From a virus (taxonomy: Duplodnaviria; Heunggongvirae; Uroviricota; Caudoviricetes), in IMG/VR virus record IMGVR_UViG_3300018430_000002: a stretch of DNA of 64,000 nt. The stretch is one strand, 5' to 3'. This document shows, in pieces, positions 12,459 to 12,996 of the stretch. A program made the translations under genes and the position numbers. The notes beneath the pieces were generated by a model, which was not told the origin of the DNA, did not search any database, and saw nothing but the letters and a program-made list of their open reading frames with translations. Position 1 is the stretch's first letter. Each line of letters starts with the position of its first letter.

Positions 12459-12996
12459 TGGCAGTCCCGATGGGAATCGAACCCACGCCTTCGCCGTGCC
12501 TTAGATTACAAATTTTGTAGTATATCTTCGGCGTTAAAATCTTGTGCTATTTTACAGATACTCTTTTGTTTAGGAGGAACTGTCCAAAATCTTGTTTCGG
12601 CTGTCCCAAACGGAGGAAATAAATAATATTTCCCTTTAAACTCTGTCATAAAATAATCTATATCGTTAATAGAATAAGATTCTTTTATAACTTTGCCATC
12701 AACTCGTTTATCATACCGAGTTTTTACCCTAAAACCTGTTTCCAATTCTGTTGCATGTTTACATTGAATACGATAGAACTTTCCATTTTTTTCGATAACT
12801 AAATCATATTTCAAATAATTACCTACTGGAAGCAAAACATTCCATCCATGTTCAAGTAACCATGTCTGACATTTCAACTCGGTAATTTGTCCTACTTGAG
12901 AAGGATTTAATTCCATGCATCACCAATCCCTTCTCCAAAGATATACCTTGTAAAGACCAAGACAGGGCGACATTCTAGCCGCTGAACTACGGGACT
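12459..12996 (-). tRNA. split tRNA-Asp(GTC): 5' exon 12961..12996, 3' exon 12459..12497, interrupted after the anticodon by a ~463-nt ORF-bearing insertion
   Basis: 5' exon AGTCCCG-TA-GTTCAGCGGCTAGAAT-G-TCGCC-CTGTC and 3' exon AC-GGCGA-AGGC-GTGGG-TTCGATT-CCCAT-CGGGACT-G-CCA. Acceptor is 7/7 complementary across 530 nt. The joined loop CTGTCAC equals the canonical Asp loop. Confidence 0.55.
12506..12916 (-). CDS. intron-encoded PD-(D/E)XK-type nuclease-like protein (putative homing endonuclease)
   Basis: ORF track 136 aa. YDLVIEKNGKFYRIQCKH motif. Lies entirely inside the tRNA-Asp insertion, on the same strand. Confidence 0.45.
   Translation of the reverse strand: MELNPSQVGQITELKCQTWLLEHGWNVLLPVGNYLKYDLVIEKNGKFYRIQCKHATELETGFRVKTRYDKRVDGKVIKESYSINDIDYFMTEFKGKYYLFPPFGTAETRFWTVPPKQKSICKIAQDFNAEDILQNL

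Follow-up and report, generated by a model that had tools for sequence, protein, structure and literature searches.

Can a tRNA gene that is interrupted in its anticodon loop by an endonuclease gene, with no recognizable ribozyme around it, still give rise to a tRNA? The question is raised by a locus in a 64,000-nucleotide (nt) stretch of a tailed-phage genome (IMG/VR virus record IMGVR_UViG_3300018430_000002, Caudoviricetes), the whole of which was analyzed and is referred to below as the window. On the minus strand, from position 12996 to position 12459, nt 1 to 36 and 37 to 76 of a tRNA-Asp(GUC) are kept apart by 463 nt. The 5' half (12996..12961) reads AGTCCCG TA GTTC AGCGGCTA GAAT G TCGCC CTGTC and provides the acceptor 5' strand, the D arm, the 5' strand TCGCC of the anticodon stem, and the loop residues CUGUC. 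The 3' half (12497..12459) reads AC GGCGA AGGC GTGGG TTCGATT CCCAT CGGGACT G CCA and provides the loop residues AC, the stem strand GGCGA, the variable loop, the T arm, the acceptor 3' strand, G73, and CCA. Joining of the halves affords a 75-nt tRNA with the loop CUGUCAC, in which the acceptor, anticodon, and T stems are paired at 7/7, 5/5, and 5/5 positions, respectively (one G-U).

With introns allowed, ARAGORN reported a single gene at 12459..12996 with a 463-nt intron, slid the junction by 2 nt, and labeled the gene tRNA-Ala(GGC). tRNA-Asp is identified by the anticodon GUC with G73 and C38, and tRNA-Ala by G3-U70 and A73. The joined tRNA carries U-A at pair 3-70, the discriminator G73, G10-U25, and the loop CUGUCAC; its best full-length matches are tRNA-Asp genes and its intact counterparts are Asp, indicating that the Ala label is wrong. 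Misplacement by 2 nt, with Asp read as Ala, has been documented for anticodon-loop introns at 35/36 (Nakagawa et al. 2026, PMC13011429). In a related locus, L026, an intact tRNA-Asp(GTC) paralogue aligns at 73/77 positions with a split gene carrying the same insert class, which places the junction at 35/36 or 36/37. Both placements fit equally in the window owing to a repeated C, and the sister insert of Enterococcus phage EFP01 (see below) is unambiguously at 36/37.

The insert is mostly coding: 411 of its 463 nt form an open reading frame (ORF) on the same strand as the tRNA, leaving 44 plus 8 nt, i.e., 52 nt, of noncoding sequence. In the 44-nt 5' untranslated part lie a purine-rich stretch resembling a Shine-Dalgarno sequence (GGAGAAGGGA) and the 5' strands of three helices. 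The ORF product matched Pfam family PF11645 (E = 3.4e-20; 72.9 bits for a gathering cutoff of 26.1), phrog_5018, and, by sequence, the homing endonuclease I-Ssp6803I (PDB 2OST; E = 2.9e-7). The AlphaFold2 (AF2) model (predicted local distance difference test [pLDDT], 94.4) had 2OST as its best Foldseek match, with a template modeling (TM) score of 0.78, followed by Holliday-junction resolvases, SPARDA nuclease domains, and EcoRV; no tRNA-splicing endonuclease was present among the 50 matches listed. Residues E13, D38, Q51, and K53, which align with the D…QVK of 2OST, are invariant across 33 homologous ORFs, indicating that the endonuclease protein is under selection. PF11645 has been described as the ssp6803i homing-endonuclease family (PMC3424549), and its bacterial members are found inside group I introns of tRNA-fMet and tRNA-Arg (PMC13011429). 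Sequence and predicted structure clearly assign the ORF product to this family.

A first reading of the locus made from the letters alone (the sequence-only reading) had identified a tRNA-Asp(GUC) with a canonical loop, an insertion of 463 nt, and a same-strand PD-(D/E)XK-like ORF of 136 residues. Stem pairing, the loop CUGUCAC, and the identity elements bear out the first of these claims, the sequence and ARAGORN the second, and the PF11645 match and 2OST-like fold the third. Its estimate of less than 50 nt of non-ORF sequence was slightly low, and its conclusion that this is too little for a group I core stands. It had also pointed to an intact tRNA-Asp at 12378..12453, which does exist, on the 3' (downstream) side in the sense of the coding strand and not upstream as proposed. 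Because the anticodon stem-loop of this neighbor differs from that of the split gene at 8/17 positions, it is probably not a target of the endonuclease. The minus-strand array to which these genes belong (8558..16281) comprises more than 32 tRNAs. Membership of the I-Ssp6803I family, the existence of a large mobile family, and pairing of the 3' end of the insert with the anticodon are additions to the sequence-only reading.

Homologues of the ORF formed 144 clusters, nearly all of about 135 residues, and PF11645 was present in all of the 120 homologues listed. Related loci were fetched from IMG/VR (13), metagenomes (41), and a metagenome-assembled genome contig (1), as stretches of 2 to 6 kb originating from gut and rumen phages; the cultured Enterococcus phage EFP01 also carries such an insert. 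ARAGORN detected 60 split tRNAs with inserts of 436 to 492 nt in 48 loci, with up to four per locus (four in L026). Since the arrangement recurs in 48 independent loci, it is far beyond chance. Comparison of the tRNA bodies with intact tRNAs identified the split genes as Asp, Asn, Ser(GCU), Gly(GCC), Ala(UGC), Pro, Thr, Tyr, and Phe, and all classes with a 36/37 junction carry PF11645 homologues 28 to 60% identical to that of the window. The insert family has spread to no fewer than seven tRNA isoacceptors of phages from the gut, from the rumen, and of Enterococcus. The exon stems are preserved in nearly every copy, detection by ARAGORN itself favoring intact exons. Loci missed by the program include three in which both halves are present and the acceptor stems are paired, L045, whose 3' exon is degraded, and two further ones that are cut by contig ends. 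The split tRNA-Asp genes of L008 (~2880..3500) and L047 (~760..1330) were missed because the D-T loop contacts have been lost jointly, the D loop (AGCAACGAA) lacking GG and the T loop (AGCAAAG) lacking TTC; the stems are intact in both of these independent loci.

EFP01 (NC_047796, Schiekvirus) carries a PF11645 gene, gp109, inside a split tRNA-Asn that is not annotated. In about 27 sister Schiekvirus genomes, the same locus, with flanks 92 to 98% identical, contains an uninterrupted, annotated tRNA-Asn. That of iF6 is identical to the EFP01 exons over 36 + 37 = 73 bases, and the 463-nt EFP01 insert therefore lies exactly between U36 and A37, without duplication or loss. The insert is present in 1 of ~30 Schiekvirus genomes. 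In the Asp class, inserts 80 to 90% identical sit in exons only 64 to 89% identical, indicating that the element moves between diverged tRNA-Asp genes. The anticodon stem-loop of the window's split gene is found in uninterrupted form in at least 120 viral contigs; the search did not reveal any close uninterrupted orthologue of the split tRNA as a whole. Judged from these sequence comparisons, mobility by homing at the DNA level is well supported: the endonuclease would cut uninterrupted tRNA genes, its putative targets, and repair would copy the element in.

PF11645 genes, and an endonuclease gene of the HNH type, also occur outside tRNA genes. In Halorubrum virus HSTV-4 (L062), a free-standing PF11645 gene (1387..1923) begins 2 nt after an intact tRNA-Asn(GTT); its presence in haloarchaeal tailed viruses indicates that the family is associated with tRNAs in three configurations. 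The PF11645 gene of L013 is likewise free-standing beside a tRNA gene. In Enterococcus phage vB_OCPT_Bop (L061), hegA, a free-standing gene of the HNH type (483..1436), is located ~200 nt downstream of tRNA-Asn; this arrangement is found in two Schiekvirus genomes (Bop and 113), and the same tRNA-Asn is the one split in EFP01.

To delineate the RNA structure, mini-precursors were assembled from 29 Asp-class inserts, the ORF interior being replaced by a linker, and analyzed with RNAalifold. The consensus contains the anticodon stem, a U33-A37 pair, pairs of G34 and C36 with the last and third-last insert bases, pairing of the first insert bases with bases -4 to -7, and a 12-bp helix formed by the 5' untranslated end with the final ORF codons. 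In the window (Table 1), the 5' junction falls inside the proximal helix, the 3' junction is located 3 bp away on the opposite strand, and the anticodon, G34 U35 C36, is paired with the GGC (12500..12498) that ends the insert. The 3' strand of the distal helix, GATATAC, encodes D-I-L, and that of the middle helix, TTGTAA, includes the stop codon. The sequence-only reading had noticed that the insert ends can pair as TTTACAA with TTGTAAA; the ends do pair, at 6/7 of these positions only, and this helix is the middle one of three. In the 29 inserts, 94.5% of the cells were paired, compared to 35 to 47% when the partners were slid, and 14/26 pairs had changed on both sides. Compared with the window, L002 shows a compensatory change in the distal helix (GAATATC/GATATTC). 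The covariation score was 0.397, compared to 0.178 in shuffled alignments, and none of 500 shuffles reached the observed value. The minimum free energy (MFE) fold of the whole 538-nt precursor contained the acceptor, anticodon, and T stems and the same rod (-141.5 kcal/mol; z = -3.3). Covariation thus supports a predicted precursor in which the tRNA body is intact, the anticodon stem is extended into a long rod, and the ORF is looped out.

The last three bases of the insert match the anticodon in seven isoacceptor classes. The pairs, given as anticodon / insert end, are GUC / GGC or GUC (Asp), GUU / AGC (Asn), GCU / AGC (Ser), GCC / GGC (Gly), UGC / GCA (Ala), UGG / CUG (Pro), and UGU / ACU (Thr). 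Owing to this pairing, the two junctions are always 3 bp apart, one on each strand of a single helix, and cleavage at both would generate 3-nt 3' overhangs. Outside the exon loop, no nucleotide is conserved across the isoacceptor classes. Conservation of the helix geometry only suggests recognition of shape rather than of sequence.

Table 1. Coordinates of the split tRNA-Asp gene, of its insert, and of other features (window, 64,000 nt; L, related loci)
Feature	Sequence	Position	Strand	Evidence
5' exon, tRNA-Asp(GUC) nt 1-36	window	12961..12996	-	sequence read; ARAGORN -i; homology with intact counterparts
3' exon, tRNA-Asp nt 37-76	window	12459..12497	-	sequence read; ARAGORN -i
463-nt intervening sequence between C36 and A37	window	12498..12960	-	sequence read; ARAGORN; L026 comparison
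44-nt 5' untranslated part of insert	window	12917..12960	-	sequence; RNAalifold; MFE fold; pair counts
136-aa ORF, PF11645 / I-Ssp6803I-type PD-(D/E)XK homing endonuclease	window	12506..12916	-	Pfam; PDB; alignment; AF2/Foldseek
8-nt 3' untranslated end, TCTAAGGC	window	12498..12505	-	sequence; RNAalifold; pair counts
Proximal helix, 5' strand (U33 G34 U35 C36 U U G G), predicted	window	12957..12964	-	RNAalifold; pair counts; MFE fold
Proximal helix, 3' strand (C U A A G G C A37), predicted	window	12497..12504	-	RNAalifold; pair counts; MFE fold
Middle (TTACAA, 12953..12948) and distal (GTATATC, 12946..12940) helices, 5' strands, predicted	window	12940..12953	-	RNAalifold; MFE fold; pair counts
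Distal (GATATAC, 12526..12520) and middle (TTGTAA, 12511..12506) helices, 3' strands, predicted	window	12506..12526	-	RNAalifold; pair counts
Intact divergent tRNA-Asp(GUC), 5 nt downstream of the split gene	window	12378..12453	-	ARAGORN; sequence; Rfam
Suppressor tRNA(CUA)	window	10744..10836	-	
ROOL RNA	L004	1..490		Rfam
ROOL RNA	L037	132..720		Rfam
ROOL RNA	L055	3823..4497		Rfam
ROOL RNA	L056 (EFP01)	3930..4516		Rfam

The insert does not contain a group I (P3-P9), group II, or known small-ribozyme core. Searches with Rfam models did not reveal any match to these types in the insert alone (E ≤ 10), in the 9 kb around it (E ≤ 1), or in the whole window, and 95 kb from 20 related loci representing every insert class gave no intron or ribozyme match at the gathering score. 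Examination with Infernal models for introns of groups I and II, as proposed in the sequence-only reading, was thus without signal. Among 333 bacterial tRNA group I introns surveyed, the smallest has 184 nt and every intron bearing a homing-endonuclease gene exceeds 500 nt (PMC13011429). A ribozyme hidden in the ORF would be expected to suppress synonymous change over 50 to 70 codons. No block of this length was seen in 33 distinct ORFs, in which synonymous diversity was ~0.2 to 0.6 in 7-codon windows, with two short dips only, at alignment columns ~84-91 and ~133-138; the latter corresponds to the C-terminal codons that pair with the 5' untranslated end. At unambiguous junctions, the insert ends in C (Asn class of EFP01 and Ser class) or A (Tyr class) and not in G, the final base required of group I introns, and many Asp-class inserts end in GUC. 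Reading of the window junction at 35/36 (CUGU/c…g/CAC) makes U at -1 and a terminal G possible. A P1 helix joining the 5' exon to an internal guide sequence was not found at the junction, the first insert bases being paired with the 3' end of the insert itself and the anticodon with the last three insert bases.

Other known modes of excision or insertion were similarly considered. Group II introns are six-domain RNAs of several hundred nt with GUGYG at the 5' end, AY at the 3' end, and an ORF for a reverse transcriptase. The insert had no such Rfam match, its ends are UUGG…AGGC, and its ORF encodes a PD-(D/E)XK nuclease. A bulge-helix-bulge consists of two 3-nt bulges on opposite strands, each containing a splice site, separated by a 4-bp helix. 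This motif, also suggested in the sequence-only reading, could not be drawn by hand at the junctions of the window or of EFP01, because a single uninterrupted helix contains both junctions at a distance of 3 bp; the precursor resembles bulge-helix-bulge substrates in that the anticodon is paired with the intron and the mature tRNA domain is kept. The known small self-cleaving ribozymes were rejected, since none was matched in Rfam, a CUGAUGA-like string in the Asn class being only the end of the ORF. For RNase III, the rod is long enough, but the 2-nt stagger of this enzyme leaves an extra 3'-exon base at unambiguous junctions. Finally, Asp-class inserts (GUC…GUC) could be taken for the product of a target-site duplication, but in the Asn, Ser, Gly, and Ala classes the insert terminates with bases complementary to the anticodon and not with a copy of it.

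Interrupted tRNA genes of other types are present in the same arrays. In the window (8836..8985, minus strand), a 74-nt insert without ORF (CACCACG…CGTGGTGACCA) is located at 34/35, and its removal gives a 76-nt tRNA-Thr(UGU), an isotype not otherwise called by ARAGORN in the array. Under relaxed ARAGORN settings, the insert itself appeared as a tRNA-like cloverleaf with a 7-bp acceptor-like stem, D- and T-like arms, and an A-CCA tail. It is too small for any ribozyme intron, and the way it is laid out suggests that RNase P and processing of the 3' end release it before a ligation step. A complete tRNA-Trp(CCA) is nested in the anticodon loop (35/36) of a tRNA-Gln(UUG) in L026 (3549..3698). 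ORF-less inserts of 67 to 83 nt with a 7-bp closing helix and a T-arm-like hairpin were found in L014 (602..743) and L018 (534..672 and 2517..2673). A brute-force removal scan with ARAGORN, used to determine the outer identities of short inserts, was too permissive and was retained for L026 only. Since the ORF-less and nested-tRNA inserts have no selfish drive and are too small for a ribozyme intron, they seem to call for a cut-and-reseal process. Larger inserts of another type, of 436 to 437 nt, interrupt tRNA-Phe (L038 and L039, 1323..1834) and tRNA-Tyr (L004, 782..1304; L032, 282..804). They do not follow the anticodon-pairing rule; the closing helix begins right at the 5' junction, and the 3' exon is preceded by a hairpin resembling a T arm and by a short tail, which is ACCA in the Phe class. 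An HNH-type protein is encoded in the Phe class and a 123-residue PF11645-like protein in the Tyr class, the junction of the latter class being unambiguously at 34/35 (CUG/…A/UAAA).

Since there is no ribozyme, the simplest route to a mature tRNA is the combination of a protein endonuclease and an RNA ligase, and our preferred reading, which we hold tentatively, is that the insert may be a true intron removed by protein cleavage and RNA ligation. An endonuclease would recognize the shape of the rod on the tRNA body and would cut the two facing junctions 3 bp apart. The anticodon loop would then be resealed by an RNA ligase, either of the kind encoded by many such phages, e.g., RtcB in EFP01, or of the host. 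In contrast to homing, removal at the RNA level is what we infer: pairing between exon and insert tracks the anticodon, without obvious use to an unspliced parasite; the exons are almost always intact; and the same arrays hold ORF-less inserts that are not explained by endonuclease drive. In addition, the split gene is the sole tRNA-Asp seen in 39/41 loci, among up to 21 other tRNAs, the counts of intact tRNA-Asp genes being lower bounds because such genes could lie outside the 2- to 6-kb loci. An intact neighbor of the same isotype was seen only in the window and possibly in L006, not in most loci. In a bolder version of this proposal, the PD-(D/E)XK protein of the insert might also cut RNA, the left half of the rod reproducing the left half of the DNA target. 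Bonocora and Shub are said to have found, in 2001, that I-Ssp6803I cuts DNA to leave 3-nt 3' overhangs flanking the anticodon, a stagger equal to that between the two junctions of the rod. It is possible, and to be held with more reserve than splicing itself, that the inserts add a fourth kind to the known tRNA introns and that they are the first introns spliced by proteins in viruses that infect bacteria.

Several observations, besides the limited span of the loci, weigh against splicing. We know of no enzyme that cuts RNA helices with a 3-nt stagger. EFP01 encodes RtcB (PF01139; 3.3e-59), but RtcB is encoded throughout Schiekvirus and appears in 596 phage records, showing capacity and not linkage; it was accordingly rejected as a specific partner of the insert. 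RtcB, which the sequence-only reading had proposed to look for, is present in EFP01 and was not detected in the window: a tblastn search with the EFP01 protein gave no match in the 64 kb, and Pfam revealed neither RtcB, nor another ligase, nor EndA, nor a candidate splicing endonuclease in 28 window ORFs, including the TAG-recoded ones. For most of the window proteins Pfam gave no match of any kind, and the genome sequence is not complete. On two long contigs, no ligase was found within 10 kb of the element. Horizontal movement implies that intact exons may only reflect recent insertions, and the split gene of the window, being adjoined by a second, intact tRNA-Asp, could be dispensable there.

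The main competing explanation is an unspliced selfish element, its endonuclease gene homing into phage tRNA genes and inactivating them. The tRNAs would be dispensable or backed by host tRNAs or a resistant paralogue, and the rod would serve the endonuclease mRNA, in its stability, translation, or processing. This account, which we consider rather unlikely while treating it as a serious competitor, draws on the possible youth of each insertion, on the intact divergent tRNA-Asp next to the split gene, and on the rarity of the insert in Schiekvirus, which fits a recent and possibly costly invasion. The free-standing PF11645 genes beside tRNA genes (HSTV-4 and L013), the degraded 3' exon of L045, and the lack of a splicing enzyme among the window proteins scanned point in the same direction. 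It does not readily explain why the last three bases track the anticodon in seven isoacceptors, since a role in mRNA stability has no obvious need for pairing with the exon, nor why the exon stems are intact in almost all copies. It has equally to accommodate phages whose sole tRNA-Asp is split in otherwise near-complete tRNA sets (39/41 loci) and up to four split tRNAs in one array (L026). For relics of two different decayed tRNA genes flanking an unrelated ORF, or mere chance, no favorable observation was found. The sequence-only reading had considered such relics, should the acceptor strands prove not to be complementary; the strands pair at 7/7 positions and those of the anticodon stem at 5/5, compensatory changes connect the halves across 48 loci, and intact counterparts align end to end with the joined halves. 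This explanation is refuted.

If the insert is removed, RNA catalysis is the alternative to protein cleavage. A small catalytic RNA could be built from the ~50 noncoding nt together with the exon and ORF ends, or a reduced ribozyme could overlap the ORF. Such cryptic self-splicing would account for a conserved and covarying rod that brings both junction phosphates close together on one helix, and the second short synonymous dip, at columns ~84-91, could be part of it. We regard it as improbable, since only the helix geometry is kept across classes, pointing to recognition of shape by a protein and not to a catalytic core. Moreover, both junctions are base paired, which is unfavorable for in-line attack, and no Rfam ribozyme family matches. 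Far less probable still is an ordinary group I intron, comparable to that of Synechocystis tRNA-fMet or to the Patescibacteria introns at 35/36, with an ORF overlapping the ribozyme core. The endonuclease does belong to the family found in the tRNA-fMet intron, and the junction can be written CUGU/c…g/CAC, 35/36 being a known group I site in tRNA-Asp (PMC13011429). Against this stand the absence of a covariance-model match at any threshold tried, 52 noncoding nt for a minimum of 184 nt (PMC13011429), and the lack of a long synonymous-constraint block. In addition, homologous inserts end in C, U, or A, and the 5' end of the insert is paired with the 3' end of the insert, whereas in P1 the partner would be the 5' exon. 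The same findings led to rejection of the group I assignment for the window insert.

Additional features were noted in the window and in related loci. TAG appears to be read as sense in part of the genome (45444..52849, 56044..57743, and 59461..60702, plus strand): when TAG is read through, ORFs lie end to end (…46514/46518…47699/47703…), with up to nine in-frame TAGs each. A TAG also lies in frame within the endonuclease ORF of L002, L003, and L005, at a position where the window has CAG (Gln). A protein combining DUF2828 and DUF7788 is encoded near the tRNA array in the window (1932..3443, minus strand) and in a 281-kb contig (L063), where the gene immediately follows the endonuclease insert; that contig also contains a CCA-adding-enzyme-like gene (PolyA_pol plus HD), the positions noted in L063 being 10897..12426 and 19146..20411. 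A sub-threshold Rfam match to YrlA (Y RNA-like) was found in the window at 9350..9467 (32.7 bits for a cutoff of 69). Rfam gave minus-strand tRNA matches in the window that were not called by ARAGORN: one with an aberrant T arm (15286..15357) and one without acceptor strands (8728..8789; model positions 6-65), and two weak tandem tRNA-like sequences far from the array, at ~33.6 kb (33552..33620 and 33626..33693, minus strand). ROOL RNA (RF03087; 199 to 305 bits) adjoins split-tRNA arrays, including that of EFP01 (Table 1), and was not found in the window. On phage contig L019, a tmRNA gene (2978..3391; 77.7 bits) directly follows a split tRNA-Asp.

To our knowledge, every tRNA intron described so far in bacteria and phages is a self-splicing group I intron or, rarely, a group II intron. 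A 2014 review placed every phage intron known at that time in a protein-coding gene, in spite of the many tRNA genes of phages (PMC3984707). In these phages, a single endonuclease family has colonized the anticodon loops of at least seven phage tRNA species without a ribozyme. If the inserts are spliced, they would constitute a new class of intron, and phages infecting bacteria would own protein-dependent tRNA splicing, which has been regarded as a trait of archaea and eukaryotes; the RNA-repair genes of phages, RtcB among them, would gain a second role beyond countering anticodon nucleases. If this also holds for the nested tRNA-like and whole-tRNA units, these phages would routinely cut and reseal anticodon loops. 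If there is no splicing, the tRNA arrays of many large phages contain several genes each that selfish DNA has disrupted, and the counting of phage tRNA repertoires changes. Either way, standard annotation misses or mislabels split genes, as illustrated by the unannotated gene of EFP01 and the Ala call in the window. EFP01 is cultured and sequenced and has many insert-free sister phages, making the question of splicing directly testable.

Among known systems, close relatives exist in the tRNA-fMet of Synechocystis PCC 6803, with its I-Ssp6803I group I intron, and in the tRNA-Arg(UCU) of Bacteroidota and Campylobacterota, with PF11645-containing group I introns (PMC13011429). They share with the phage insert the endonuclease family, an anticodon-loop target, an ORF inside the insert on the same strand, and, presumably, homing. 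They differ in being self-splicing ribozymes of more than 500 nt, located at 33/34 or 36/37, where U precedes the intron and G is its final base, and in residing in bacterial chromosomes, whereas the phage insert has 463 nt, 52 of them noncoding, no ribozyme signature, and ends that pair with each other and with the anticodon. The Patescibacteria group I introns occupy the same tRNAs (tRNA-Asp and tRNA-Asn) at nearly the same site (35/36) and are subject to the same ARAGORN error, but they have 184 to 894 nt, belong to subgroup IA, have been shown to self-splice, and mostly lack an endonuclease gene, a few having an HNH gene (PMC13011429). Free-standing homing endonucleases, such as the seg and mob products of T4 and the PF11645 gene of HSTV-4, are similarly selfish, virus-borne, adjacent to their target (a tRNA gene in HSTV-4), and devoid of a ribozyme. 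Their genes lie between other genes and leave the target intact, unlike the phage insert, which sits inside the anticodon loop and has an RNA that pairs with the exons.

The layout also resembles that of archaeal bulge-helix-bulge introns containing LAGLIDADG genes, which occur in rRNA and tRNA and are processed by EndA and RtcB: there too no ribozyme is present, a basal helix presents the junctions, the ORF is looped out, and, in pre-tRNAs, the anticodon is paired with the intron. Removal by a protein endonuclease and a ligase is likewise the working model for the phage insert. The phage precursors differ by a continuous helix with junctions 3 bp apart in place of two 3-nt bulges, by insertion at 36/37 and not 37/38, by a different endonuclease family, and by bacterial hosts (Enterococcus for EFP01); we know of no EndA in bacteria. 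The intervening sequences of bacterial 23S rRNA also combine a long basal stem in a structural RNA gene with removal by a protein, RNase III. In that case the fragments are not religated and no ORF is present, whereas a tRNA nicked in the anticodon loop would need ligation, and the stagger of RNase III is 2 nt compared to the 3 nt implied for the phage insert. In the literature searched, tRNA genes of phages interrupted by endonuclease inserts that lack a ribozyme were not described. As judged from the sequences, an intervening sequence bearing a homing endonuclease in a tRNA anticodon loop would thus be the known part of the system, and the missing ribozyme its new part.

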